Positions 3,158 to 44,400 of a stretch of DNA of 64,000 bases are shown here, one piece after another; the first letter of the stretch is position 1, and every line of letters starts with the position of its first letter. The notes beneath the pieces were generated by a model, which saw only the letters and a program-made list of their open reading frames with translations, did not search any database and was not told where the DNA came from. Position numbers and translations under genes: made by a program. Source of the stretch: a virus; IMG/VR virus record IMGVR_UViG_3300029845_000007, one strand, 5' to 3'.

Positions 3158-5590
3158 TCACTTCTTACTAGAACTACTACTAGACTTTGGTTTATCATAT
3201 TTGTTCTTATTCTCTTTAGCTATCTTTAGTTGATTATCTCTATCTAATGCAGCATTAATCATATCCAAGTCTTTAGCTCGTTTCTTCTCATTTAGTTCAG
3301 CTTGTTTTAAAGATAGTTCGGCAGAGTTATCTTGTGGTACAGTTTGTGCAGGTTGATTAGCTAGAGCAGCCATTGCAGCTTCTGTATCCATTCCTTTAGC
3401 AAGAAGGTCATAATAACCTTTGATTTCGGCAAGTCTAGCATCTTGTTCTCCTTTTGCAGCTATCTGTTCAAGAGCAGCTTTATTCTTAGCATCTTCTAAC
3501 TGTTGGTCTAGTTGACGAAGAGATTCTTCGTTTTTCTGACGAATTTCTTGATAACGATTAATAGCTAGTTTAAGACTAGATATATTCCCTGAAGTAATAG
3601 CTGCGACAGCTGACATTAAATCTCCATTCTGACTAGCATTGAAAGCCCACTCTTTGAGTTGCTCGAACTTCTCTGTTTCTCTATCAGAGTTCTTAGCTTT
3701 AATCACATACTGTCCGAGAGTATGATTCTCTACATTAAGAGAAATATATTGCTTTCTATCTGACTTATCATAATAAGAAGTATCTAACCCGTCAATCCAA
3801 GCTAGCTTAGAATTATTTAAGTCTACGATATATTCATCTTCACGAAACTTATCAAACATATAATTGGTAATAACAGTTCCCATTGAACTACGAATAATTG
3901 CTTCTTCCGTAGTACCTTTACCAGCACTAGTAGCTATTTGTCCATAACGTTGTGGTGTCATATCTACCATTTCACGTGCACTGACTTTAATAGATTCAAT
4001 AAGATTAGATATTTCAGTAATATAACCAGAGATATTAGCATCGAGCATTTTAATAGATTGCGCTTTAGTGCTATTAATATCTTCTGCATCATCGTATGGA
4101 AATATACCTTCAGCAGCTATATTATATATAGCTTCTTCCGCATCTTCTCCAAATAAAGACTTAGCTGCAACAAGAATAAACATCTTATTTTTAGCTATCA
4201 TCATTTCTCTATGATAAGAGAATATATTGATTAGTATTTGGAAAGGAGTAAGTATCTCTACAATGGAGAACTTTCCCATTTGAGGAAGAACTTCTTGAAG
4301 TCCACAATATTGCAATCTAGCATCATCGTCTATTTGGAAAGGAATAGGTTTAGCACCACCTGGGTATATACCGAAACGTTGTCCTCCAATACGATAACCT
4401 TCATATATCTGCGGTTTATATACAACAGATATTTCAATATGACCTAGTTCAGGATTAAATTCAAAGTCATCAGGAACAATCATTTCATCAACTAAACCTA
4501 CTTCGTTAATATACTTTAGTATCTTAACTTGCGCATATCCTCTCCAATTAACATGCCATACTTCTAACAATTCTCCGTTCTTTAATCTTAAATCATAACC
4601 TTCTGACGGAAATATCTCACCAGTATCTTCTTTATAGTTCTTACACTTTTCAGGAAAATAATAAGTATAAGAATTAAGACTAAGAGTACGAGTAGCTCCA
4701 ACAGTACTAGGATTATAATACTTAGTTATAAATTCTAGTTGTTCCTCTGTTAATTCATCAGAGAATTGGTCTATTACCTGATTGTAACTCATTAACATTC
4801 TACGAGCTACAATATCATATTTAGATACCATTTGTTCTCCATTAGGAACAGGATACATATCAGTAGTAGGAACATATTCTTTAATTAGTTTCTTACCACG
4901 AACAGTATGGAAACTATAAACTTCCCCCGTAGTGATATAGTTGAAATACTCAACCGGAATTATTGTCTCATTATTAAGAACATCATCAATAACTTCTAAT
5001 AGTTGCTGTGCTTGTGAACTTATCTCATCTATATAATTATCAATAAAGTTCTTTTCAAACTCTTCTGCATCACCTGCAAGTTGTGCTGGGTCAACATCTT
5101 GTGTTGGTTGTCCTTGAGCTTCTAGTTGAGCGTTTTCAGCTTGTTGCTGTTGTACTCTCTTTTGAACTTCTTGTTGAAACGCTATCATAGCTCTCTTAAC
5201 TATATCTTCTCGAATAGCTGCATCACGAGCCATAATAATTTCAGGATTATTAGCACCAACAATAAATTCATGCTGAGACTTAACATATTCTGATAAATAA
5301 CGACGAACTACATCATTAATAATATCAAGATTTCTTAGAGTAGCAGGAAACCTCTTAAAGTTCTCCTTAGTAGCATTATAAGGATTAAGTGTCTTACGAT
5401 AAAACTCGTCAGGCATTTCTCCATGAAGTATTTCAAGAAGTTGTTCAGTCTTAGTTCTATCATTACAAGCTAGTCCGGCAGCAATACAATAATCTATTGT
5501 TCTGCCTGCCCAATACTCATCCTTTTCAGAATTAGGGATACGCTGTTTAGGCATATCCCCAAGTCTAACATTTAGCTTTGCATCAATCAT
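3158..5590 (-). CDS. Putative portal protein.
   Basis: 810 aa. Positioned between the putative TerL and the scaffold-like and capsid genes. Long C-terminal coiled coil ending in a Ser/Lys tail. Assigned by size and synteny only. Confidence 0.4.
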   Translation of the reverse strand: MIDAKLNVRLGDMPKQRIPNSEKDEYWAGRTIDYCIAAGLACNDRTKTEQLLEILHGEMPDEFYRKTLNPYNATKENFKRFPATLRNLDIINDVVRRYLSEYVKSQHEFIVGANNPEIIMARDAAIREDIVKRAMIAFQQEVQKRVQQQQAENAQLEAQGQPTQDVDPAQLAGDAEEFEKNFIDNYIDEISSQAQQLLEVIDDVLNNETIIPVEYFNYITTGEVYSFHTVRGKKLIKEYVPTTDMYPVPNGEQMVSKYDIVARRMLMSYNQVIDQFSDELTEEQLEFITKYYNPSTVGATRTLSLNSYTYYFPEKCKNYKEDTGEIFPSEGYDLRLKNGELLEVWHVNWRGYAQVKILKYINEVGLVDEMIVPDDFEFNPELGHIEISVVYKPQIYEGYRIGGQRFGIYPGGAKPIPFQIDDDARLQYCGLQEVLPQMGKFSIVEILTPFQILINIFSYHREMMIAKNKMFILVAAKSLFGEDAEEAIYNIAAEGIFPYDDAEDINSTKAQSIKMLDANISGYITEISNLIESIKVSAREMVDMTPQRYGQIATSAGKGTTEEAIIRSSMGTVITNYMFDKFREDEYIVDLNNSKLAWIDGLDTSYYDKSDRKQYISLNVENHTLGQYVIKAKNSDRETEKFEQLKEWAFNASQNGDLMSAVAAITSGNISSLKLAINRYQEIRQKNEESLRQLDQQLEDAKNKAALEQIAAKGEQDARLAEIKGYYDLLAKGMDTEAAMAALANQPAQTVPQDNSAELSLKQAELNEKKRAKDLDMINAALDRDNQLKIAKENKNKYDKPKSSSSSSKK

Positions 5591-12333: not shown

Positions 12334-12821
12334 AATTACTTTAATTAGATTATTAATATTATTAATTAAGTTGACTAACATTACTAACTGTAATATAACC
12401 GTCAGTCATTAATAGCACAAGTATACGAATAATATCTATATCATCAATATCTAACTAGTTAAAAAACCTTTAGAATTGTATTCTCTGTATAATTCACATC
12501 CATTCACACTAGTTCACATTAGTATACACTCTAATACAAGTCCACTACTTAACTAAAATATCGACTAAATCTTACCATTCTATTTTTACAATCCTAATGC
12601 TAAATCTTCGGACTCTTCGATAGAAGAGGAGAAAGGTAATACACAATAAGACACAATAGACAACTAATACTATATAATATAAGTAAGACCAATTAAGGAC
12701 TTAAAGGAATTAATTAGACTAATAGGACTAACTAATAAGATAATTCTTCTATAAGAAGAGTTAGACTACTAACAACAATAGATATACAGAAGGGAATTAG
12801 AAATACTATTAGAACTAACTA

Positions 12822-12940
12822 ATGTATATAGACTTAGAAATAGGACTGGAACTACTGTTAGAAATAGAATTAGGAATAGGACTAATAATGAACTTAGAAA
12901 TAGGATTAGGACTATTAGAAGAAATAAACTTAGAGGTACT
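12822..12940. repeat. Degenerate tandem repeats of about 13 bp (cttagaaatagga-like).
   Basis: Visible as repeated LEIGL units in the spurious ORF 12822-13082. Lies in the 1.2 kb divergent intergenic region. Confidence 0.6.
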
Positions 12941-13081
12941 ACTATTAGTGCTGCCCCACAAAATAATATTTTTCATGAGTATATTTTTATCGAGACGAAG
13001 CTCCTACCCTGATAGCCCCCTGCTCTCAAACCAATTCCAATACCCCCGTCAAGACCAAATGACTTTAAACATATTGCTATA

Positions 13082-14411: not shown

Positions 14412-14465
14412 CTGATAAGCGAAATGCTACAACTGATAAGCGAATCCAACCAACTGATAAGCTAT
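14412..14465. repeat. Three iteron-like direct repeats, CTGATAAGCGAA / CTGATAAGCGAA / CTGATAAGCTAT, at about 21-bp spacing.
   Basis: Copies begin at 14412, 14433 and 14454. The last overlaps the stop codon of the winged-helix gene. They sit in a GC-rich non-coding stretch (14255-14461). Confidence 0.6.
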
Positions 14466-14977
14466 TTGTCCGAATACAGTCTCATGTAATCCGATACGAA
14501 CTTGTTTCTATCTCCCATGAACATCATATTATGGTTTATGATATAGACATTGTTCTTATCATTAATAGCTTTAGCTATAAAGTTAGCATCGATTAGTTGA
14601 CGGATACCGTCACTTATTCTCTGTTGACTAACAGACAATTCACCAGCAATCTTAGTTTGGTTAAGTACTATCCAGTTACAACCGAAACCTATATTCCTAT
14701 ATATGTAATTCAACATGGATAAACCATGGGTCTTTAAATATCTTAGGTTAGACATTCCATCGAAGTACAACTGCATAAAGTTACCTGTATATCTAACTTT
14801 ATCATCTTCGATTACAACAATTGTCTTACCTGTCTTATTAGCCCATTGTTTAAGCTCGTCAAGACTGTCGTCAGAACAATCTTTAGGATTAATATTAAAA
14901 GGAAATACAGTAGGTTTGATAAGATTGTCCACTGGTTGGACTTTAGCATTAGCTTTAGCATTTGTTTCTACTTTCAT
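14462..14977 (-). CDS. Winged-helix DNA-binding protein (Rep-initiator-like or transcriptional regulator).
   Basis: 171 aa. ...NWIVLNQTKIAGELSVSQQRISDGIRQLIDANFI... is a typical HTH recognition-helix/wing. Flanked by iteron-like repeats on the 3' side and an inverted-repeat operator pair on the 5' side. Confidence 0.55.
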   Translation of the reverse strand: MKVETNAKANAKVQPVDNLIKPTVFPFNINPKDCSDDSLDELKQWANKTGKTIVVIEDDKVRYTGNFMQLYFDGMSNLRYLKTHGLSMLNYIYRNIGFGCNWIVLNQTKIAGELSVSQQRISDGIRQLIDANFIAKAINDKNNVYIINHNMMFMGDRNKFVSDYMRLYSDK

Positions 14978-15019
14978 AATTGTTAATTTATAGTTAAAAA
15001 CTCATTTTCGGCTTCTAAA

Positions 15020-15082
15020 TTACACAGATTTGCGTGTAAAAACAAGCATTACACCTAGTATTTTACACAGATTTGCGTGTAA
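15020..15082. promoter_or_regulatory. Two copies of a 20-bp operator-like site, TTACACAGATTTGCGTGTAA, upstream of the winged-helix gene.
   Basis: Copies at 15020-15039 and 15063-15082. The ends TTACAC/GTGTAA are inverted repeats. Located 43-105 bp upstream of the start codon at 14977. Confidence 0.55.
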
Positions 15083-15179
15083 TTTGAAATTCGTAACTGA
15101 CTGATAATGACCGATTTAACATAAAATTAACACGCTATAACAAGATAGGGAATCTTGTAAAAAATAGATTTTTATTTTG

Positions 15180-15960
15180 TATATGCAAATATAATACTAT
15201 TTTTTTTATTAGCTCACCTATTCGATGACTATTGTCGTAGACAATAGGAAGAAGCTCATACAATAACAACAGTAGTATCAACAATAGTATTATCAACATC
15301 AGTAGTATGAATAGTATGAATAGTATTATCAACATCAATAGGAAGAAGACTATTACTAATATCAATAGCATCAATAGTAGTATGAATAGTAAGATATAGA
15401 GATGATAGCGAAACTACATTCCCTTAACTCAATATAACTCCTCACACTTACTAAATTAAACCTCTTAATGTTTACTTTTGAACCTATTCAAAATCCATAT
15501 AGAGTATAAATCAAATTTATTCGATTGTACTATTATCGCTATGTTTCCGATACTATATTTCCGATACTCTATCGTCATTGTTACTATCGTCATTGTTATT
15601 ATATTATATTATTATACTATCACATGTTATTACTATTACTATTAGGTTTTAATCTAATCTCACTATTGCCAATCTCACTATATACTATTAGTATTATATC
15701 TTGGTTGTATTGTATGAGGTCTAGTTCCTATTCTTACAGAATAGTTCACTAGTATATTAATACTATATATAACATCTGATAACGAGAATACCAATAGATT
15801 GAATATAAGGCTATATAATAGACTGGATAGTATTATTACCAATAGATTGGATAATAGAATAAGTATAGTAATATGTATAAATATGTATAGATATGTATTA
15901 CTATTAATATCTAGATTACTATTTGGTTTGTTACTTAGCTGGTCTAGTCCCGCTCGCAAA
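15180..15960. repeat. Low-complexity, minisatellite-like non-coding region.
   Basis: Repeated units include aataggaagaag, agtagtatgaatagta, tttccgatact x2 and tatcgtcattgtta x2. Only spurious Leu/Ile-rich ORFs overlap it. Confidence 0.5.
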
Positions 15961-16452: not shown

Positions 16453-17352
16453 ATGAAAGCTGTTGTAAATGATAAAAATCATCTAACTTTTGTATCTCAT
16501 CTTAATGGAGTTACTATTGTTGAATCTAGTGGTTTTATTATCGATTTAGATTATCAATGTCTTACTTCTATTTGTGAGATTTCTGATATTGGTAATAATT
16601 ATAGTATTGCTGAATCTAATAGAATCTCTGAATTAGAGAAAACTATTTCTGAATTAGAAGCCGATGTTGCTAATAAGTCTACTCAAATTAGTAAACTGTC
16701 TAGTGAATTAAATCTTCGTGCTAGAGTTATTAGTGAGAAGAACGAAGAGATTGAACAACTTAAATCTGATATTATTAAGTTCCAAGCTGATATTGCTAAT
16801 TTTCAGGCTTGTGCTGCTAATGTTTCTGATATTGAATATGAACTGAATAAATGTCGTGAAACAAATAATGCACTTACAGAAAAGTTAGAAAGTAAAACTT
16901 CTGATTTAGCTGAAAGAACTTATTGGTTCAGATATTATAGACGAGCATTTCGTGCTGTTAAGGAGTATCTTAAGCCTAATGAAAAATATGGTTTAGATTC
17001 AAGCGGTTATAATATTGTTAATAGTATTGATAGTAAATTTATAATATCATTTAAAGATACAAGTATTGCTAGTAAAGCATTTAATGAGTTAAGATATTCT
17101 ATTTCTCCAAGAACTGTATTACTCAAGTATGAAAATGATATTGTTGAATATAATGTCGATGCTATGAATATCTATTTTATTGAAGCTAATACTCCTACGG
17201 TTATTCGTAAGTTTAATGATGAAAACTTTAGTATTACTTGTTGCGATGTTTATACTGCCGAGATTACTAATGCTCTTCTTAATTGTGGTTTTCCTGCTAG
17301 TGATATTGTTTCTACTTATAAATCATATATAGCATTTAGTAATATCAATTAA
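16453..17352 (+). CDS. Hypothetical coiled-coil protein.
   Basis: 299-aa ORF. The central region (SELEKTISELEADVANKSTQISKLSSELN...) is heptad-rich. Confidence 0.5.
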   Translation: MKAVVNDKNHLTFVSHLNGVTIVESSGFIIDLDYQCLTSICEISDIGNNYSIAESNRISELEKTISELEADVANKSTQISKLSSELNLRARVISEKNEEIEQLKSDIIKFQADIANFQACAANVSDIEYELNKCRETNNALTEKLESKTSDLAERTYWFRYYRRAFRAVKEYLKPNEKYGLDSSGYNIVNSIDSKFIISFKDTSIASKAFNELRYSISPRTVLLKYENDIVEYNVDAMNIYFIEANTPTVIRKFNDENFSITCCDVYTAEITNALLNCGFPASDIVSTYKSYIAFSNIN

Positions 17353-20110: not shown

Positions 20111-20476
20111 ATGGGATTAAGTTTCAAACTATCAGCGGTAAATGAGGAACAGAAAATTCCTCGTGAGAAAGTAATAATGCAGATTGTTACTGGAACTATC
20201 GTTCTACATGATAACATGTATAAGTTTAAACCTAAAGATAGTGATGAATTTATTACGTTATCTGAACGTTCGTACTCATGTAAAGGTTTTAAGACAATAT
20301 ATACTCGTGCATTAGATAATTATGGTAGACCTACTAAAATTGTTAGATGTACTGATGCTTATTGTGTTATGCCTAGCTGTTATATTCCATTTAAGATAGG
20401 ATTACCTGTTAAGGGTTATATACTTAAATGTCGTGATAATATTGATAGATTCTTACTAAAATGCAATGAATTTTGA
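20111..20476 (+). CDS. Hypothetical protein.
   Basis: 121-aa ORF. Confidence 0.45.
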   Translation: MGLSFKLSAVNEEQKIPREKVIMQIVTGTIVLHDNMYKFKPKDSDEFITLSERSYSCKGFKTIYTRALDNYGRPTKIVRCTDAYCVMPSCYIPFKIGLPVKGYILKCRDNIDRFLLKCNEF

Positions 20477-20957
20477 AAAGTTTGATGATGCTAAGAAAGA
20501 CGATAAAGTCTTAAATAGTTTTACTCGTGACCAAAAGATTGCTTATGAAAACCTAGTAGCTTTTATTGAGAAAGGTTATGTTGCAGGTGATTATAAACGT
20601 GCTCTTATTGGCTCGGCAGGTACAGGAAAAACATATATGATACGTGAAGTAATTAGACGATGCGGATTATCTAAATCCGTTATTGGTCTTGCAGCTCCTA
20701 CACATAAAGCTGCTCGTGTACTTCGTGCATCTACTGGATATTCTACGTCTACTGTGGCTAGTGATTTAGGTTTAAGACTTAATACTGATGTTACTGATTT
20801 TGATATTAATAATCCTCCTTTTGACCCATTAGCTGAAAAGAAGATTAAGCAATATAAGTTATATATTGTTGATGAAGCGTCTATGATTGGTATTAATCTT
20901 AAAACTCTTATAGAAAGAGAATGTGAACAGTTTGGTTGTATGCTTATTTATATGGGT
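20466..20957 (+). CDS. PIF1/RecD-like SF1 DNA helicase, exon 1 (Walker A through DEAS box).
   Basis: GSAGTGKTY Walker A. IVDEASMI motif II. The exon ends ...LIYMG at 20957, with U as the last exon nucleotide. Confidence 0.8.
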
Positions 20958-22123
20958 AAATAGTTATTGCCCAGTTTAAACTCTTCTAATTGCTGGAAAC
21001 TCGTGAAGGTAATAGTACTACAACATAAGTTGAAAAACTAAGTGTGAATGTTAGAAAAACTATTATTATATGACAATCAGCAGCGAAGTCTCTAAATTAT
21101 GTTCATTTACATAATAAGAGAAACGTTCATCGACTATCCCGTAAGGGAGTACAATTCTATGGAATTGGAAACGGAGAGAGTTGTATATTTGCAATTTACT
21201 CCTTATATTTACATAAATTTTTAAAATGTAAATATTATGAGCAAAAAAGAAACTCCAAAAATGTATGGTTTAGAACATAAGTTAAATTCTAAGTGTGTTT
21301 ATATTCATTTTATTAAATCTATTAATATTCCTATTTATATAGGAGAAGGAAATGTACAAAGAGCTTTTGATTTTACTAATAGAAATAATAAATGGAAAGA
21401 ACTAGTTAGCAATCTTAATGATGTTCATGTTGAAATAGTTGCTATTGATATTAATAAAGAAGAATGTGTAGAAATAGAAAAGCAGCTAATAAAACTATAT
21501 AAAGAAAGAGGATTTGAACTTGTTAATTGTAATAATGGAGGTAGTTGTATAGGAACTTTTGGAGAAGATAATTATTTTTATAATAAACATTTGTTTGGTA
21601 AAGACAATGGTAATTATGGAAATAAATATTCTAAAAATCCTTTATCCATTGAAGTTATTCAGTTAGATATATTTGGAAATATTATTAAGAAGTGGAGTTC
21701 TGCACAAGAAGCAGAAGAAATAGGTGGATATATTGCTAGTTGTATTAATAGTTGTTGTAATGGTAAACGTCAACTACACAATAATTATCAATGGATATTT
21801 GCTTATAATTATAATCCTAATAAATCTTATGAATATATTCCTAAAGGAACTTCTATGAGAATTTATTTAGCTATTGGTATAAGAGATAATAAATCTTATA
21901 TTCATGGTATATATAATTCTAGTAATGAACTTACTAATGAAGGATTTAATCCTAAACTAGTTCAACAAGTTGTTACTGGTTATAAAAAGTCTCATAAAGG
22001 TTTTGCTTTTGTTGATTTCTTTAGATTAACTAAAGACCAACAAGAAAAATATAAAGAACAAGTTATTGCAAAATTATATAGCTAAGATATAGTCAGACTA
22101 TTATAGAAATATAGTAGGTTATG
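20958..22123 (+). mobile_element. Group I self-splicing intron (1166 nt) carrying a GIY-YIG homing endonuclease ORF.
   Basis: Follows an exonic U and ends with G at 22123. Internal guide sequence gccca (20969-20973) pairs with the exon end tgggt. P-like element aattgctggaaactcg (20988-21003). Q-like aatcagcagc (21075-21084). R-like gttcatcgactat (21125-21137). S-like aagatatagtc (22084-22094), which overlaps the HEG stop codon. Splicing restores helicase motif III, LIYMG|DNYQLQPV. Confidence 0.8.
21237..22085 (+). CDS. GIY-YIG homing endonuclease (intron-encoded).
   Basis: N-terminal VYIHF...IPIYIGEG...R GIY-YIG signature. C-terminal region has NUMOD-like DNA-binding repeats. Confidence 0.75.
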   Translation: MSKKETPKMYGLEHKLNSKCVYIHFIKSINIPIYIGEGNVQRAFDFTNRNNKWKELVSNLNDVHVEIVAIDINKEECVEIEKQLIKLYKERGFELVNCNNGGSCIGTFGEDNYFYNKHLFGKDNGNYGNKYSKNPLSIEVIQLDIFGNIIKKWSSAQEAEEIGGYIASCINSCCNGKRQLHNNYQWIFAYNYNPNKSYEYIPKGTSMRIYLAIGIRDNKSYIHGIYNSSNELTNEGFNPKLVQQVVTGYKKSHKGFAFVDFFRLTKDQQEKYKEQVIAKLYS

Positions 22124-23089
22124 GATAACTATCAACTTCAACCAGTTAAAGAATCTCGTTCACGTTGTTTTGATAATGTTAAGTTTTATACTCTTAGACA
22201 GATTGTTAGACAAGAAGAAGATAATCCTGTTAGTGAGTTATTAAAGATACTAAGAAAAGATATTGATAATAGGAGTTGGAAATTCCTAGAATATATCAAT
22301 AAAAACAGATATGCTTTCGATTCAACTCAAACTAAAGGATATTATACTTGTGGTGCATACGAGTTTCAATCTCTTGTAATAGACGGATTTTATAATGAAG
22401 AGTTTACTAGAGATGTTGATACTTGTCGATTAATAACTTATACTAATAAATCTGTATCTGAATGGAATAAATTTATTCGTAACAATATCATCGAAGGTAG
22501 TGATAAAGCAATTCTAACTCGTAATGATTTAGTAATGTCTTATAATACTTTTGTTGATGAGTTTAAAGATACTATTATTGTAAATTCTGAAGATTATATA
22601 ATACATGATATTAAGAATTTTACTAATAAAGATGAAATCTTTGGATTCAATGTTACGTTCATTCAAGTTAATGGTGGTAATAGAACTAAACCTTTATTTG
22701 TAGTAGACCATTCTAATTTAAATAATGTTATGCTTTATTATAAGTTAGGTGAAACTTATATTCAAAATGCAATTAATGCAGAGAAATATAATAGAAGTAA
22801 GCGTTGGAAGGAATACTATGACTTTAGAGAGAGGAACTTGTTACTAGTTAACTTATTAGATAGGTCTACTGGTAAGATTAAGTTTAGTCGTGACTTAGAT
22901 TATGGATTTGCTCTTACAGCTAATAAAGCTCAAGGAAGTACTTATTTTGATGTATATGTAGATATAAATGATATTGTATTTGATATGCGTACTGGTAATC
23001 CGTGGGGAAATATAGATGAAACTCTTCGTAGATTATATACTGCTTGTAGTAGATGCAAAAATCGTTTATATTTGTGTTACGGTAAATAA
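22124..23089 (+). CDS. PIF1/RecD-like helicase, exon 2.
   Basis: Begins DNYQLQPV (motif III). Contains FALTANKAQGSTYFDVYV (motif VI-like). The track ORF starts at the in-frame ATG 22121, which is the last 3 nt of the intron. Confidence 0.8.
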   Translation, partial: DNYQLQPVKESRSRCFDNVKFYTLRQIVRQEEDNPVSELLKILRKDIDNRSWKFLEYINKNRYAFDSTQTKGYYTCGAYEFQSLVIDGFYNEEFTRDVDTCRLITYTNKSVSEWNKFIRNNIIEGSDKAILTRNDLVMSYNTFVDEFKDTIIVNSEDYIIHDIKNFTNKDEIFGFNVTFIQVNGGNRTKPLFVVDHSNLNNVMLYYKLGETYIQNAINAEKYNRSKRWKEYYDFRERNLLLVNLLDRSTGKIKFSRDLDYGFALTANKAQGSTYFDVYVDINDIVFDMRTGNPWGNIDETLRRLYTACSRCKNRLYLCYGK

Positions 23090-23102: not shown

Positions 23103-25373
23103 ATGAGTTCTATGTGTTATGATGTCGAAGTAACTAGAAATTACTTCTCGGTAGTATTTGTTGATTTACGTAGTTATCTTAAAACATTTTCTGATTGTGT
23201 TGATAATGAGGGAAAAGCTATTCCTATTATTGATAAACTTAGTGTTACAGAGATAAAGAAACGTTTAGAAACAATACCTAAGAAACGTTTTGTTTTATAT
23301 GAAGATGATGATAGTGATTTATTTAATCTATTATATTGGTTAATACAGAAGGCAGATTACTTCGGTTATAATAATCGTAAGTACGACCGCTTAATGTTAA
23401 GTGCATTATTAATGTATTATAATCAATTTGATAAACCTAGTAAACTTATTACATTTCTATATGAAACATCACAGAGAGTTATTCGTAATTCTAATAATGA
23501 TACTCTTTGGACTGATAACTTCACTTCTCTTATACTGCGTAATAACGTGGCATTTCGAGACTTGGATTTATTCCAAATATTTAGGCTAGACCATTTTCAT
23601 AAAAGTCTCAAACAGACTTCTATTAATATTAAATGGTATAATCTGAAAGAGTATACTATGCCACCTATTGGTGACTTAGATAGACATTATTACCATGAGC
23701 GACTTCCCGAAGCTAAAAGCATGACAGATAGAGAACTTAATATCCATTATCGTAATGTGTTTGAAAGATTTATACCTAAAGAATATCTTCAAGAAATGGC
23801 TGATTATAATGACAATGATGTTTATATTGTTGCCGAACTAATTAGAATGAATCAAGAAGAAGTTCTTCTAAGGTATCGTATTAGTGAAGAATATAAGGTA
23901 GATGTATTCTCTGCAAGTAGAAGTACGATAGCTGATAAAGTTATTGTTAAGCTATATAGTAAGTTTACTGGTCTGCATCCTAAAGCCTTCATTGATACTA
24001 AGACAATACGTAGGAAAATCGTAGTTTCCGAAATTTTGTCAGATAAAATCGCATTTTCCACGCCTGAATTGAACGATATTTTGTCAGACATACGTTCGCT
24101 AACCCTACGTGGGGAAAAGAGCGAATTTGACAGGGAATTTACCTTCATGGGCACGTCATACACTATCGCAACAGGAGGTTTACACTCAAACGAGATTCCG
24201 AACATTTATCGTAGTTCTGCTGATTATTCAGGTGCTACTGATATTACTATTGGTAATCCTTATGATAGTAATGGCAATATTGGAGTTAGTACTTCTGATA
24301 TATATATTTGTGATTTTGATATTAATTCAATGTATCCTAATATTATTAGAAGTCTTAAAGTATGTCAGAAACATCTACTTCCTAAGGCATGGTTTCGTAT
24401 AGCTGATACTATTGTCGATGAACGACTAGAACATAAACATTTATCCAAAGATAAATCTCTTGATAGTAAAGAGAGAGATAAACATGCTACTGCTGCTGCT
24501 TGTCTAAAGATTGTAGCAAATGCTGGTATATTTGGTAAAATGGGTAGTGAACAATCTTTCTTGTGTGATAAGAAAGCAATGTATCAAGTTACTATTAATG
24601 GGCAATTATTTCTACTAATGTTAATAGAGAAACTTGAACTTGCAGGCATTCATATAATAAGTGCTAATACTGACGGTATTGTTTCTATAATACCAAAAAA
24701 TAAGTTTGAATTATATTGTAATATTTGTCACGAATGGGAGAAAGTAGTTGGATTGACAGGTGAATTTACTCCATATACTAAGTATGTTACAGAAGGAGTA
24801 AATAGTTATCTTACTGTAAAACCTAATAATGGTAGAAAATTCAAAGGTAGAATGAATCCTAAGATGTTCTTAGAGGATTTATCTAAAGGATATAATTCTC
24901 CTATTGTAGCTAAATGTGTTACTGAATACTTTATTAACGGTACTCCTGTTATGGAAACTCTTCGTAATGCTAAATCTATTCTTGATTTCTGTCGTACTCA
25001 AAATGTTAATCATAAGTATAGACTAGAGTTTACTCACGTTGTAGACGGAAAGATAAGAACAGATGTGGTGCAGAGGAATACAAGGTTTTACATCTCCTCT
25101 ACGGGGGGAACCCTCATGAAGGTTGAGAGTATAGGCTGGAACGATAATGGTGAAGAACAAGTTAAAAAGAGTTCTTTATGTGCAGGTCAACGTGTTTCTA
25201 TATGTAATACTGTTGATGATACTGATATATCTGAACTAAATGTTAATTACTTATATTATTATAATGAAGCTATGGCTATTATTGAACCAATAGAGCAAAG
25301 TCGTAATAATAAAGGTAAAGGTAAACGTTTAGTTAAGAAATACTATGGAATGAGAAATACTTTGTTTGATTGA
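23103..25373 (+). CDS. Family B DNA polymerase.
   Basis: Exo I CYDVEV. Exo II YNDNDVYIVAELI. Motif A DFDINSMYPNII. Motif B KIVANAGIFGK. Motif C ISANTDGIV. Start trimmed to ATG 23103, just after the helicase stop. Confidence 0.8.
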   Translation: MSSMCYDVEVTRNYFSVVFVDLRSYLKTFSDCVDNEGKAIPIIDKLSVTEIKKRLETIPKKRFVLYEDDDSDLFNLLYWLIQKADYFGYNNRKYDRLMLSALLMYYNQFDKPSKLITFLYETSQRVIRNSNNDTLWTDNFTSLILRNNVAFRDLDLFQIFRLDHFHKSLKQTSINIKWYNLKEYTMPPIGDLDRHYYHERLPEAKSMTDRELNIHYRNVFERFIPKEYLQEMADYNDNDVYIVAELIRMNQEEVLLRYRISEEYKVDVFSASRSTIADKVIVKLYSKFTGLHPKAFIDTKTIRRKIVVSEILSDKIAFSTPELNDILSDIRSLTLRGEKSEFDREFTFMGTSYTIATGGLHSNEIPNIYRSSADYSGATDITIGNPYDSNGNIGVSTSDIYICDFDINSMYPNIIRSLKVCQKHLLPKAWFRIADTIVDERLEHKHLSKDKSLDSKERDKHATAAACLKIVANAGIFGKMGSEQSFLCDKKAMYQVTINGQLFLLMLIEKLELAGIHIISANTDGIVSIIPKNKFELYCNICHEWEKVVGLTGEFTPYTKYVTEGVNSYLTVKPNNGRKFKGRMNPKMFLEDLSKGYNSPIVAKCVTEYFINGTPVMETLRNAKSILDFCRTQNVNHKYRLEFTHVVDGKIRTDVVQRNTRFYISSTGGTLMKVESIGWNDNGEEQVKKSSLCAGQRVSICNTVDDTDISELNVNYLYYYNEAMAIIEPIEQSRNNKGKGKRLVKKYYGMRNTLFD

Positions 25374-25377
25374 TAAA

Positions 25378-25611
25378 ATGGATATAGAAAAGATATGTAT
25401 AGCTAATCTTGGAAAAGAGATTATGTATGGTAGACTTAAAGGAATGATAGTAGGTTATGATACTATATTAAAATATTTAATCATTTCTTTTACTAATAAC
25501 TATGGTTGGAACTTTTTAATAGATAATAGTGTTATTCTATTAAATAGTCCTCTTAATCATAGTTATGTTCTTATTAATCCTGAATATTATAAAGGACAAC
25601 TTGTCTTATGA
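25378..25611 (+). CDS. Small hypothetical protein.
   Basis: 77 aa from ATG 25378. The track's 25366 start uses TTG inside the PolB stop region. Confidence 0.35.
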   Translation: MDIEKICIANLGKEIMYGRLKGMIVGYDTILKYLIISFTNNYGWNFLIDNSVILLNSPLNHSYVLINPEYYKGQLVL

Positions 25612-34582: not shown

Positions 34583-34901
34583 AAACACAGTCAGATTCGT
34601 TACTATTCCTAATTTTCCTAATTATTGTATAGGAGAAGACGGAAGAGTTTGGTCTGATAATCGTAAACGTTATCTTAAATGGTATCGTGGTAAAGGTTGC
34701 GAACGACCTCATGTCAAATTGTTTCACAATGGTAATAGTGCTAAGCTATTTATAGCTACTCTCGTTGCTCAAGCATTTGTTACTAATCCTAAGCCTAATG
34801 TATATAAATATGTTAGGTATAAAGACGGTAACAGTGCTAACAATCATTATACTAATATTGAATGGTGTAGAAATCAAACTGGAAGTAAATATGGAAAATA
34901 A
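34569..34901 (+). CDS. Free-standing HNH homing endonuclease.
   Basis: N-terminal IPNFPNYCIGEDGRVWS (NUMOD4-like). HNH core HVKLFHNGNS...DGNSANNHYTNIEW. Confidence 0.65.
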   Translation: MEEVKNTVRFVTIPNFPNYCIGEDGRVWSDNRKRYLKWYRGKGCERPHVKLFHNGNSAKLFIATLVAQAFVTNPKPNVYKYVRYKDGNSANNHYTNIEWCRNQTGSKYGK

Positions 34902-35169
34902 AATAAAAAATGTTTTAGATATTATAGCCGAAATAAGTAAGAAAGATAAGAAGAAACAAGTATTCATTCTTATTAATCTTATAAATCAGTTAAAAAGTAC
35001 TCGTATAGAGGCTAACAGCAATTATGAAGATTGTCAGCTTTCTTATGCTCGTAGAACAGATAATTATATTGATAACTTTAAGCTGATGCTATTTAAGAAA
35101 CGATTAGATTGTCTGGATATGATTATTGAGAACTTAGATTTTTATCTTGACGAATTATTAAACAAATAG
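34891..35169 (+). CDS. Hypothetical protein.
   Basis: Internal Met (MENKIKNV...) of track ORF 34765-35169. The upstream part overlaps the HNH gene. Confidence 0.4.
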   Translation: MENKIKNVLDIIAEISKKDKKKQVFILINLINQLKSTRIEANSNYEDCQLSYARRTDNYIDNFKLMLFKKRLDCLDMIIENLDFYLDELLNK

Positions 35170-35170
35170 T

Positions 35171-35476
35171 ATGAATAGAGCTAAAATCTTTCAAAGTGTC
35201 ATTAAAGGAACTAATGTATTTACTCCTATTATTGATAGTTATCATACTGTTGGTAATCACATTATTGAACTTAGTTGTTCCGAAAAAGATAATCAACATG
35301 GGTTATACAATAGAGAAGTTAATGGCATTAGCTTTAAAGGTACATATGGTGTGACTGTTATTACTAATAACGGTAATGGGTGGGAACGTAGTATTGAATT
35401 AGATAAATTATGTTATTCTCGTGAAGAAGCCATAGAATATATTAAATCATTAGGAGATAAAGAAGATGAAATTTGA
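35171..35476 (+). CDS. Hypothetical protein.
   Basis: 101-aa ORF. Confidence 0.45.
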   Translation: MNRAKIFQSVIKGTNVFTPIIDSYHTVGNHIIELSCSEKDNQHGLYNREVNGISFKGTYGVTVITNNGNGWERSIELDKLCYSREEAIEYIKSLGDKEDEI

Positions 35477-35628
35477 TAATCCTTATAGTATATTTCTTGA
35501 TGATAGTCCTCTTGAATTAGTATTTCCTTCTAACAATAGTTACAAAGGAAGTTCTACTAAAGAAGGTTCTAATTCTAAAGCTATTGCTAAGAGACGTAAA
35601 CGTAATAAGAATAAGAAAACTCATAGAA

Positions 35629-40351: not shown

Positions 40352-40537
40352 ATGACAAAAAGAATAAGCGTTAAAGTAAAAGCCTATCAATCTAATGGAT
40401 TTAGTAGAACTTGTAAGAACTGTATTTATAGACCTTGTACTCCAATGCAATTAAATCTATGTACTAAAGCCTATATAGAAGGTTATATGAAAGGTTACAA
40501 GAGAGCTAAAAAAGATATTAAAGAAAGAATAATATGA
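40352..40537 (+). CDS. Small zinc-ribbon protein.
   Basis: CKNC...C...C. 61 aa. Confidence 0.4.
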   Translation: MTKRISVKVKAYQSNGFSRTCKNCIYRPCTPMQLNLCTKAYIEGYMKGYKRAKKDIKERII

Positions 40538-40712
40538 CACTAGAAACTGTTGGAATAATTATAGGAGGATTAATATTTGCATCAATACCATTTGGAATGT
40601 TAATCTATTGTATTGTAAAAGAATTAGCTGAAAAGAAGTTATGGGGATATTTATTATTCATAGTAATAATGATAATATTGTTTTTAACGAAATCTTCCAT
40701 AGAAACTTCATA
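40536..40712 (+). CDS. Small membrane protein (58 aa, 2 TM).
   Basis: ATGA overlap with the previous ORF. MTLETVGIIIGGLIFASIPFGMLIYCIV... Confidence 0.3.
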
Positions 40713-40806
40713 ATAGATTAGAACTATTAATAGTAGTAATACTGTTGATAGTTCTTTTTTTTATGTTGTACTTGGATAAAATCAACGTATTAATGATAGT
40801 TGTATT

Positions 40807-41408: not shown

Positions 41409-44400
41409 TTATTCTTCATCTTCATCAGTAATCATATTAGCAACAACTTGACCTAAACCACTAAACGGACTACTACGTACTTTATAGTAACTATTATTAG
41501 CACCAAGTCTTTCATGTTTTATAATCTGATTAACTAATGGTACTTGTTTAAAGAAATTTACTACAAGTTTATTTTCATCTGAATAGCTTCCTGAATTATA
41601 ATATAAATCATCAGGATTACCAGTAATAATATAGCTACAAAGTGCTCCTAATAATCTAAGATTATCTTGCGCAATACTTAATGCAGCAACAGGTTGACTA
41701 TATAGTTTCTTACCTTCATTAGCTAATCCCCACGGAGTATATTGAATAATTTCAGACATTAGACGGTCAGCACTATATAAGATATAGTCAGCTACTTGTG
41801 TAGAATCATCATCGTCATCTAGCATTAATTTTCCTACTACAAATAGTGCTACTGCTTTAGTAATAGCTATCCATTCACCTAAGCATCTACGAATATTGGC
41901 TTTATCATATTCAGGAAGAATGTTATAATAAGTAGTAAGATTAGCTACAAAATCTGCATAACCTTTAGCAATTCCTTGAAGAGTACGAACAGCTTGAAGT
42001 TCGTTACTATCATTAAGTTCGTAGTATTTCTTAAATGGCATTGCTATAAACTCACCTAAACTAACATAAGTTCCTTTACTAATAGATTCTCTAGTTTCAT
42101 TATATATACCGTCAAAGTGACCTAAACGATAACCAAAACGTTTTTGGAATCCAGGAACTAAGTGTTTATGGAACTGCATTAGTAAAGCTCCCCACCAAGA
42201 TTGTTGTAATTGATTAGCACCAATCTTATCATAGATACCATGTATTTGATGATTAACTGATATAACCTTATTACGGAAAGCTGCAATATCATTATTAGTA
42301 AGACCACTGTCAGGTTTAAGAATAGCAACACCATTTTTCAAGATAAGACTTTCTCTAAAAGAAGGATGATTCTCGAACTTAGTTCTTTCTTCTTTAGTAT
42401 CTTCTTTATAGGTAGCTTTAAACTCTTCTCTTATCTCTTTAGGAACAGAGCGTAAGAAGTCAGTTATTATATCAGCTTTAAACTTAACATAACGTTCTTT
42501 CTCAATATATGATTCAAGTACTTTATCTCTGAATGTTTCATATTTAGTAACTAATTCAGGATTATTCTTACGAAGAACTTTAAGCAATGCTTCTTCTCTA
42601 AGTCCCATAGCAAACTGTTCAAATGACATTACTTTATTCTTACCATTAACAGTAACAACTCTATGAGAATGAAGCATAGCTAACAATGTAGCGTTCTGCA
42701 TATAATGTTCACCTGCGGTTTGTTGGATAAACAACAGATTTTCTAATTTACCCATAGGATTGTTACCTTTACCATAACGTTCTGTTATCATATCAGATTC
42801 AATAACATTGAATAATCTAATAATAGCATTAGTTTCGTTATTAGTAGTTTCATTATAAGCATCAGCTAAATAACTACCTACATTCTGCATCCATTCGTTC
42901 TCACCTTTACGGAAGTCTTTGTATTTAAAGAATTGTCCGGCAGCCATTTCCATTTGTATCTGTGTCTTACCATATAATACGTTGGCAATACCACCAGTAA
43001 CGTTTAACATCATAAACTTACTAGATACCATATTACGCATAACACGAGATACTTTAGAACGAGTACCTTCATCCATTTCAAATTCATTAAATACTAACTT
43101 ACGAACTTGATTCTCAAAGTGCTTAACTATATTAGAATCATCACTTTTAGTTGTGCGTATTTCTTGTTTACCAGTAATTCTACTAAGTAATCTATTATCC
43201 ATAAGTTTATCGTTAGGATTTCTCTTAATAATATCCATATTACGTAATTGATTACTAGTAATTTTAGCTAATCTAGCTATATCATTACGAGTATTAAAGT
43301 TATACATACTATCAATAAATGAATTAAGTCTTTCAAGAACATTAGGATTATTACGTTCTACATTTTCCTGTGCTCTTTGCTTACGTAACTCATTGTTCCT
43401 AGCTTGAGTTTCACGAACATAAGCTAGATATTCATCAGTAGTTTCACCTTCTTGTTTCTCACGAATAGGAAGAAGTTTAATCTCTGATAAACTATGTAAC
43501 ATAGGAGCATTACTAAATCTTTTATATAGATTAAGCTCTATATCAGATTTATTAGGAGTATCATACCAACCATGACTGCGTTTAAAGTCTTGCCAATAAT
43601 CAGTAAATCCTTGATGTGGTTGTTCAACAGCTTGATTAGGTAAATAACCACGATTAATATAAGCACGACTACGTTTATCTTTAACAAGACTATTAAGTAG
43701 ATTATCTACTTCATTGTATAGTTGTTGCTGATAGTTATTCATTCCATAATATTTATCATTGCGATATTTATTAGTAGAAGGTTGTAACTTAACTTCATCA
43801 TAGTTAGGATTCTTGTACTTGTCTTTAACTTTAGTTTCTAACCATTTATATTTAGGACTATATTCCATATTATTAGCTTCGTCCTTAACTATCATTTGTC
43901 TCCAAATAGCTAATGGTTCGTATTCTTTAGTAATAGGATTAAGCACATGATTCTCGTTATACCATTTATCAAATACTACTTTACCCATTTTGTTCATAGC
44001 CACATACATAGCTTCGTAGTATACAGTATTGATATAGCTTATATGCTCATCTAACCACTTTTGAGCTTGTTCTTCATTTGGCTTAACTCTACCAACAGCT
44101 GCTGCAAACATTTGCTCTTGATGTTTCTTTAAGTTAGCTATTTGCACTTCTGTAAACTTAGTACCGTCAATAACACCTGTTTCATCATACTTACCGTATG
44201 CCATAGTACGAACAAAACTATCAAAAGGATTGCCAGCACGAGTATCCATATAAGCTTTCTTTAACTCATCTAAGAACTCACCTTTTAACTTATAGTCAGT
44301 ATTAGCTTTAAGCCATTCAGCTGATTCTCGATAAGTTTCAGATGTTTCAGGGTATTGAAGTCCTTCAATAGCTTGTTTATAACGAATAGTAAAAGCATCC

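Follow-up and report, generated by a model that had tools for sequence, protein, structure and literature searches.

A Probable IA-Type Group I Intron with a Predicted Homing-Endonuclease Gene in the Dda-Like Helicase Gene of a crAss-Like Phage

The IMG/VR virus record IMGVR_UViG_3300029845_000007 is represented here by a stretch of 64,000 nucleotides (hereafter the window), in which the gene of a Dda-like helicase of superfamily 1B (SF1B) is interrupted by an insert of 1166 nt with the hallmarks of a group I intron. Judged by nucleotide identity, the source is a crAss-like phage of the genus Jahgtovirus (Intestiviridae, Alpha group). A 3.6-kb query around the locus is 94.5% identical to the uncultured phage cr107_1 (MT774377, Jahgtovirus intestinihominis, Intestiviridae) and 88.6% identical to Bacteroides phage crAss002 (MN917146); each match comes in two pieces that cover just 67–68% of the query. 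Both phages carry a 1458-nt gene annotated as DNA helicase immediately upstream of the DNA polymerase gene. The window has three open reading frames (ORFs) at this locus, 20466–20963 (165 aa), 21237–22085 (282 aa), and 22121–23089 (322 aa). The first matches the Pfam families AAA_30, AAA_19, and PIF1 and contains Walker A (GSAGTGKT) and motif II (VDEAS), and the last matches UvrD_C_2. A preliminary description of this DNA had taken these two ORFs for the halves of one helicase split by a group I intron with a GIY-YIG endonuclease gene. The Pfam matches bear out the two halves, and the AAA_30 score rises from 60 bits for the half to 80.5 bits for the joined protein. The locus can be divided as follows.

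20466–20957, plus strand: helicase exon 1, 164 codons, ending TAT ATG GGT (ORF; Pfam; colinear with cr107_1 and crAss002)
20958–22123, plus strand: putative group I intron, 1166 nt, IA-like, with P7.1/P7.2 and no P2 (insertion relative to cr107_1; RF00028; covariation; minimum free energy (MFE) fold)
22124–23089, plus strand: helicase exon 2, 321 codons and stop, starting GAT AAC, the D-N of motif III (ORF; UvrD_C_2 at the C-terminus; colinearity)

The preliminary description had suggested that intron-less alleles be consulted, and these set the boundaries at 20957 and 22124. When the whole window is compared with cr107_1 by blastn, the alignments break at these two positions, which are adjacent bases in cr107_1, and the insert between them is the largest of nine window segments without a match in that genome. 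The boundaries are unambiguous because a shift of one base in either direction breaks the match. The junction of TATATGGGT with GATAA is identical in the window (spliced), cr107_1, and crAss002. Joining the exons at these points, as originally proposed, gives a 1458-nt frame for a helicase of 485 aa, equal in length to and ungapped against the helicases of cr107_1 (94.5% nucleotide and 96.1% amino acid identity) and crAss002 (88.5% and 89.9%). No frameshift or stop codon interrupts either exon. The insert interrupts the codons for G and D of helicase motif III, which the join restores as YMG^DNYQLQPV (the caret marks the junction). The joined protein matches PHROG_325, "Dda-like helicase", with 239.6 bits (E = 1.5e-70) and PIF1 with 26.8 bits (cut-off 25.9); UvrD_C_2 scores 23.1 bits, under its cut-off of 27.4. 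A single polypeptide of 485 aa holds Walker A, motif II, motif III, and the C-terminal motifs, as in Dda/RecD/Pif1-like SF1B helicases. An intein was rejected as the cause of the split: read in the helicase frame, the insert contains stop codons, and the frame of the endonuclease ORF is a different one.

In a scan of positions 20850–22250, the Rfam model RF00028 (Intron_gpI) matches twice, at 20981–21178 (48.4 bits, E = 6.6e-11, model positions 50–157) and at 22084–22114 (19.2 bits, E = 0.036, model positions 221–251); the covariance-model search suggested in the preliminary description finds the intron in this short-stretch scan only. The alignment places P3, P4, P5, P6, J6/7, the 5′ strand of P7, J8/7-P7′, and P9. 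The elements that had been picked out by eye as P (20988–21003), Q (21075–21084), R (21125–21137), and S (22084–22094) correspond in this alignment to J3/4-P4-J4/5-P5, P4′, J6/7-P7, and J8/7-P7′, respectively. The last of these, AAGAUAUAGUC, agrees with the RF00028 consensus at 11 of 11 positions, and at J6/7 and the 5′ strand of P7 the sequence follows the Rfam consensus GUUCAaAGACUA. All of P1, P3–P9, P7.1/P7.2, and P10 can be drawn in the insert, with the following assignments.

20953–20973, plus strand: P1, UGGGU (20953–20957) with GCCCA (20969–20973), U20957·G20969 at the 5′ splice site (sequence; covariation)
20961–20963, plus strand: in-frame UAG, which would end translation of unspliced RNA (sequence; ORF end)
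20963–20968, plus strand: P10 5′ strand GUUAUU, pairing with GAUAAC (22124–22129), 6 bp, adjoining P1 in the guide sequence (sequence; covariation)
20981–20986, plus strand: P3 5′ strand, pairing with 21173–21178 (Rfam alignment; covariation)
20991–21082, plus strand: P4 (20991–20996/21077–21082), P5 (21001–21005/21069–21073), and P5a–c (21009–21066) (Rfam alignment; covariation; MFE)
21083–21126, plus strand: P6, P6a, and P6b (Rfam alignment; covariation; MFE)
21127–21136, plus strand: J6/7 and the P7 5′ strand, GACUA (21132–21136) with UAGUC (22090–22094), forming a pseudoknot with P3 (Rfam; covariation)
21137–21167, plus strand: P7.1 (21137–21148, GUAA loop) and P7.2 (21152–21167) (insertion relative to the Rfam model; MFE)
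21173–21178, plus strand: P3 3′ strand (Rfam alignment; covariation)
21179–21195, plus strand: P8 5′ strand, pairing with 22064–22083 at the 3′ end of the endonuclease coding sequence (hand pairing; covariation; MFE)
22084–22094, plus strand: J8/7 and the P7 3′ strand (second Rfam match; near-invariant among relatives)
22098–22117, plus strand: P9 hairpin, GAAA loop (Rfam alignment; covariation; MFE)
22123, plus strand: terminal (omega) G, last intron base (boundary set by intron-less alleles)

Relative to the Rfam model, 33 nt are inserted between P7 and P3′, giving the hairpins P7.1 and P7.2. Hairpins at this place are the mark of subgroup IA in the Michel–Westhof scheme, and with both of them present the intron can be called IA-like. 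The peripheral helices do not make up the full set of the T4-like IA2 introns, which includes P2 and P9.x, since a P2 hairpin is absent; the spacer between P1 and P3 is just 7 nt long (GUUUAAA). The frame of exon 1 meets its UAG two codons into the intron. When the ORF is deleted and the intron folded without guidance, the MFE structure recovers P3, P4, P5, P5a/b, P6, P6a/b, P7.1, P7.2, P8, and P9; its z-score is −2.63, and one of 200 shuffled sequences folds equally well. The 5′ strand of P8 pairs with the last codons of the endonuclease gene, which puts the ORF in the P8 loop. As first described, this ORF lies between R and S, and its stop codon TAA (22083–22085) overlaps the start of J8/7. 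The omega-G named at the outset is indeed the last intron base when the intron-less alleles are used as the reference.

Covariation among relatives was assessed in 15 distinct ORF-deleted copies (14 from helicase genes, one from a family B DNA polymerase (PolB) gene), with pairs counted on the structure derived from the window. Standard pairs occupy 88.9% of cells, compared with 73.6% after column shuffling and 34–45% in slid controls, whose 3′ partners were moved by 1–3 columns. Changes on both sides were found in 57 of 90 pairs (18–25 with slid partners), the covariation score reaches 0.436 (0.08–0.10 in the controls), and none of 500 shuffles matched the observed value on any measure. While the shuffle control ignores phylogeny, the slid controls retain it and still lie far below the observed values. 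P3 is paired in 100% of cells, with compensatory changes in five of its six pairs; both sides have changed in 10 of 12 pairs of P6a/b, four of four in P7.1, eight of nine tested in P8, and eight of eight in P9. P5, P5a, and P5b also show compensatory changes, P5a/b being rich in double changes like P6a/b, P8, and P9, and P4 and P7 are invariant (P7 in 15 of 15 copies). As far as aligned sequences can tell, the covariation shows the RNA secondary structure to be under selection.

The pairings with the exons deserve separate mention. The proposed guide sequence GCCCA pairs with the end of exon 1 as predicted, and the U·G at the 5′ splice site is kept in 15 of 15 copies, with the neighbouring pair alternating between C-G and G-C. 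In P10, 90.8% of cells are paired and five of six pairs have changed on both sides, the codons of exon 2 differing by host. Exon 1 ends in AUGGGU, AUCGGU, UGCGGU, GUGGGU, or CGACGU, exon 2 starts with GAUAAC, GAUAGU, GAUGCA, GAUUCU, GAUGAU, GAUCCC, GACGCU, or GUCGUC, and the guide sequence is altered to match the exon ends of each host in both P1 and P10. Since splicing is the sole process that requires such matching, this tracking of the host exons argues for splicing. Every spliced junction restores motif III in the form (Y/F/W)(I/M/V/C)G^D..Q(L/I).P(V/I).

The protein encoded within the insert is harder to place by domain models. Its gene and the element upstream of it are arranged as follows.

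21203–21233, plus strand: TATATTT(A/G) box and 7-bp hairpin (UUUACAU/AUGUAAA), the hairpin ending 4 nt before the ATG (conserved; hairpin covaries)
21237–22085, plus strand: predicted homing-endonuclease gene in the P8 loop, with a divergent GIY-YIG domain (about residues 17–100), a disordered linker, and a NUMOD-like DNA-binding region

The Pfam family PF01541 (GIY-YIG) scores 18.7 bits with the N-terminal domain alone and 15.7 bits with the whole protein, under the cut-off of 22.6; the better match spans residues 22–90 and profile positions 3–74 of 78. A NUMOD-like Pfam match is also present, and an NCBIfam search gave no match. Only 3 of 35 family members match Pfam GIY-YIG at E < 0.1, and relatives of the N-terminal domain are likewise largely missed by this model. 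A profile search of 1.84 billion representatives returned 35,178 matches, mostly through the repeated NUMOD-like module. The fold is clearer. The AlphaFold2 model, based on the alignment of 35 sequences, reaches a mean predicted local distance difference test (pLDDT) score of 83.5, with two well-predicted parts and a disordered linker (residues 99–132), and Foldseek relates it to UvrC and PD-T4-3 with probabilities of 0.97–1.00. Profile alignment by hhalign to the canonical intron GIY-YIG enzyme of a related locus, L003, reaches a probability of 92% (E = 5.6e-7) and pairs CVYIHF...IYIGE with CVYSIK...QYIGS, together with the motifs of the catalytic Glu (E81) and Asn (N97). Residues Y22, H24, Y34, G36, R42, E81, and N97 are invariant in the 35 family sequences, so that the Tyr of "GIY", the Tyr-x-Gly of "YIG", and the Arg, Glu, and Asn of the catalytic set are all present. 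From the structural model and the profile alignment we conclude that the product belongs to a divergent clade of GIY-YIG homing endonucleases, with homing as its predicted function. The original GIY-YIG assignment thereby holds at the level of the fold, but not by Pfam alone, where the match is sub-threshold.

In 11 of 15 helicase-intron loci, a TATATTT(G/A) box lies 29–42 nt upstream of the endonuclease ATG. It resembles the −7 element of Bacteroides promoters (TAnnTTTG), a motif that shows no enrichment in the window: 44 occurrences were found, against 47 expected from composition. The box and the hairpin could possibly act as an internal promoter or in translational control.

The endonuclease ORF is intact in 37 cluster representatives that share 39–94% identity. 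All eight homologues that were located on contigs sit between N-terminal (AAA_30/AAA_19) and C-terminal (UvrD_C_2) helicase fragments, next to the polymerase gene, and IMG/VR holds nine more loci with the endonuclease between helicase halves. With duplicates left out (L005 = L004, L008 = L007, L015 = L017 = L014), there are 16 distinct helicase-intron loci with the ribozyme core, the window included. All endonuclease-bearing relatives examined carry this core (nhmmer E values of 1e-38 to 1e-63); the naturally split two-gene helicase without core elements, which the preliminary description had named as grounds for abandoning the intron, was not encountered among them. The split arrangement persists, with all exons intact, in relatives whose endonucleases are only 39–50% identical. 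The intron is absent from cr107_1 and crAss002, and from every GenBank phage record in the collection searched; it is present in four IMG/VR contigs with a 94%-identical endonuclease. Among phages whose flanking DNA is about 94% identical, the element is thus present in some and absent from others. Exon 2 shows seven substitutions relative to cr107_1, six synonymous and one P→Q, in its first 30 nt (22124–22153), compared with 0–2 in the neighbouring 30-nt bins and a gene-wide mean of about 1.6 (estimated Poisson tail about 0.002, before correction for about 48 bins). The cluster, for which statistical support is modest, would fit co-conversion or divergence of the target site.

The terminal G precedes GAT or GAC in 13 of 14 distinct relatives. 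The exception is L011 (ENA ERZ28637838 contig, 3935–3950), which reads ...UUACA^GAUUCA and has one G fewer than the other copies (...G^GAU). This copy either lacks the terminal G or has a frameshifted exon, and damage to the intron or an error of assembly could account for it.

Several relatives show further insertions. In L004 (Logan SRR22514078, 1181–2728), whose endonuclease is 81% identical to that of the window, the helicase gene holds an intein in addition to the intron: its exon 1 codes for 515 aa, compared with 164 in the window, the surplus being a LAGLIDADG-type intein in Walker A (GTGK^ATTEDT...IVTHN^TYM). L012 has a second helicase intron (4694 to about 5075), ORF-less and of the same ribozyme family, in motif V (YAISSHKS^QGSTYE); its full-length Rfam match scores 35.5 bits (E = 2e-7) and its nhmmer match has an E value of 2.6e-30. 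In L003 (MT838267, a Mexican faecal contig, 1638–2698), the same ribozyme family occupies PolB motif A (DV^SSYYPS) with its own P1 and P10, and it recurs in PolB at L007/L008 (6823–7035), where the copy is cut at the end of the locus. In the window itself, nhmmer searches with the family profiles, which are limited to this ribozyme family, find one copy. Matches of a core-motif regular expression at 41779, 44100, 48409, and 48997 were discarded as a second intron, being scattered single-element matches only, and a candidate second intron in L009 ("L009b") proved to be a chance motif match.

Taken together, the results confirm what was first observed and support its first interpretation: positions 20958–22123 very probably represent a mobile IA-type group I intron in the motif III codons of a Dda-like SF1B helicase gene, predicted to be competent for splicing and to carry a GIY-YIG homing-endonuclease gene. 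The helicase gene would be transcribed through the intron, and ribosomes on unspliced RNA would halt at the UAG two codons in. Once the RNA has folded into the P3–P9 core, the guide sequence would pair with the end of exon 1 (P1), placing a U·G at the cleavage site, and free guanosine would attack after U20957. G22123 would then fill the guanosine-binding site in P7 while P10 aligns exon 2, and the exons would be ligated into an mRNA for the 485-aa helicase, along the usual two-step pathway that guanosine initiates. The ORF in the P8 loop would supply a GIY-YIG homing endonuclease of 282 aa whose NUMOD-like tail binds DNA. When phages with and without the intron infect together, this enzyme would cleave the helicase allele that lacks it close to the junction of TATATGGGT and GATAA; the break would be repaired on the intron-bearing template, and the intron and some flanking exon would thereby be copied into the cut allele.

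Several points weigh against this reading. Splicing is deduced from sequence, the structure was derived from one of the aligned copies, and phylogeny can still inflate the comparison with the covariation controls. Support is lower for P5c and P7.2 in the form drawn, with 65–70% of cells paired. The P2 hairpin is absent, which is unusual for phage IA2 introns. Neither RF00028 match reaches the gathering score of 50 bits, the larger stopping at 48.4, and the ORF-less paralogue of L012 reaches just 35.5 bits. Rfam scans of all 64 kb, run with the gathering threshold and with E ≤ 0.01, gave no intron match, nor did a scan of the 6.3-kb locus L003. The endonuclease stays under the Pfam GIY-YIG threshold (18.7 versus 22.6 bits), and PDB sequence searches with it, as a single sequence and as a 35-sequence profile, returned nothing useful. 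Some of these negatives have a technical origin. The ORF separates the two Rfam pieces, and therefore the match is split and the gathering score is not reached; the whole-window negatives are due to speed filters, the intron being recovered only in the scan of about 1.4 kb.

Among the alternatives, the one that denies RNA splicing altogether holds that a free-standing endonuclease has split the helicase into two polypeptides that reassemble, as is reportedly the case for the mobE-split nrdA of phage Aeh1. A stop codon does end exon 1 shortly past the junction, an in-frame ATG at 22121 precedes exon 2, so that a C-terminal protein of 322 aa could in principle be made, and splicing is something we infer. 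The coordinates given for this third ORF in the preliminary description are exact, but its opening ATG (22121–22123) consists of the last three bases of the intron. An intron ending in AUG is shared by just three of the 14 distinct relatives (L010, L019, and L022), while 11 have no ATG at the junction (L004, L006, L007, L009, L011, L012, L013, L018, L020, L021, and the polB intron of L003), and a conserved start codon at this place is unlikely. Moreover, the flanks of the endonuclease gene form a group I ribozyme core with strong covariation, P1 and P10 track the host exons as only splicing requires, and a split between the G and the D of motif III cuts through a folded RecA-like domain. We therefore consider two reassembling polypeptides very improbable. 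Even less credit can be given to the idea that the insertion inactivated the helicase and that the phage manages without it. Nothing specific speaks for a pseudogene beyond the two fragments that an ordinary gene caller would annotate, whereas the exons are free of frameshifts and stops, their product is 96% identical to the intact helicase of cr107_1, and the arrangement with intact exons persists down to endonuclease identities of 39–50%.

A closer competitor accepts splicing by the ribozyme but supposes that the endonuclease is inactive or the intron immobile, with vertical inheritance only. The divergence of the catalytic domain below the Pfam threshold could be read in this way, and L011, without its terminal G, suggests that some copies are damaged. 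Yet the ORF is intact in all 37 clusters despite identities as low as 39%, with the catalytic-type residues invariant, and the intron is variably present among phages about 94% identical in flanking DNA. The same ribozyme family has also reached motif A of PolB and motif V of the helicase, both of them conserved sites, and the substitutions relative to cr107_1 cluster in the first 30 nt of exon 2, as co-conversion predicts. Loss of mobility is thus unlikely, and the mobile intron remains the preferred explanation.

The nearest well-known counterparts are the group I introns of the td, nrdB, and nrdD (sunY) genes of phage T4, which belong to subgroup IA2 and are associated with I-TevI, I-TevII, and I-TevIII. 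Like these, the window intron lies in a phage gene of DNA metabolism, within the codons of a conserved catalytic motif; its core is of the IA type with P7.1/P7.2, its endonuclease ORF is looped out from a peripheral helix, and an in-frame stop follows shortly after the 5′ splice site. Unlike them, it resides in a Dda-like SF1B helicase gene of a Bacteroides crAss-like phage and has no P2 hairpin, and its endonuclease is under the thresholds of both Pfam GIY-YIG and TIGR01453. The ORF is found in P6 in td and in P9.1 in sunY, whereas that of the window is looped out of P8, and the final codons of the gene double as the 3′ strand of this helix. The DNA polymerase introns of the Bacillus phages SPO1 and SP82, with the HNH nickase I-HmuI, and the introns of Staphylococcus phage Twort are a second point of reference. 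They are likewise phage group I introns in replication genes; the catalytic domain of the window enzyme, in contrast to the HNH domain of I-HmuI, has a GIY-YIG fold.

The PolB intron of L003 is a much closer relative. Its core is 86% identical over 172 nt, and it shares the same helices, an insertion site in a conserved motif, and matching P1 and P10. However, it differs in its host gene and in its endonuclease, a canonical GIY-YIG enzyme (Pfam 39.5 bits; TIGR01453 63.3 bits) that has only the NUMOD-like segment in common with the window enzyme in a direct BLASTP comparison. Ribozyme and endonuclease catalytic domain appear to have been combined independently. We lean, with some reserve, towards the view that these elements belong to a lineage of P2-less IA-type introns that is specific to Crassvirales and is still homing in the human gut. 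Such a lineage may have colonised three or more conserved positions in genes for replication (motifs III and V of the helicase and motif A of PolB), and it may be paired with two GIY-YIG lineages, one of them a divergent clade missed by domain models.

Away from the helicase locus, the eight other window segments without a blastn match to cr107_1 are all shorter than 760 nt (12783–12961, 14465–15221, 16609–17048, 24200–24332, 25402–25607, 34899–35169, 35454–35623, and 40528–40717) and probably correspond to small variable genes or to intergenic DNA.

Group I introns are already known in crAss-like phages. They were reported in the genes of the major capsid protein, PolB, primase, and ATP_43b of the Delta and Zeta groups, where they were found through their endonuclease domains, while the alpha-gamma group was described as without mobile-element insertions (Yutin et al. 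2021, PMC7886860); a review from 2023 likewise places them in the Delta and Zeta groups. The window shares the virus order and the type of element with these cases, but its phage belongs to the Alpha group (Jahgtovirus) and the SF1 helicase is not among the host genes named there. What is new is thus the occurrence in an Alpha-group genus and in the SF1 helicase gene. Because most family members have no precomputed Pfam domain, the window endonuclease would evade a domain-based screen.

The proposed mechanism is the textbook one, and the understanding of how such elements work is unchanged. The presence of the element in an Alpha-group phage, however, contradicts the published impression of a group free of mobile insertions. 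Gene callers give two "genes" and a hypothetical protein at this locus, as the precomputed calls in relatives also show, and recognition of the intron would return a Dda-like helicase of 485 aa to the replication module. It also brings to light what is predicted to be a divergent clade of GIY-YIG homing endonucleases. Whole-contig Rfam scans can be expected to miss ORF-bearing group I introns in long contigs as a matter of routine. The intron-plus and intron-minus alleles form a natural pair, and with the intron-minus phage crAss002 in culture, homing and marker exclusion become testable in gut phages. If the lineage is indeed active, crAss002 or cr107_1, together with Bacteroides hosts, would offer a tractable system for the study of intron homing among the phages of the gut.

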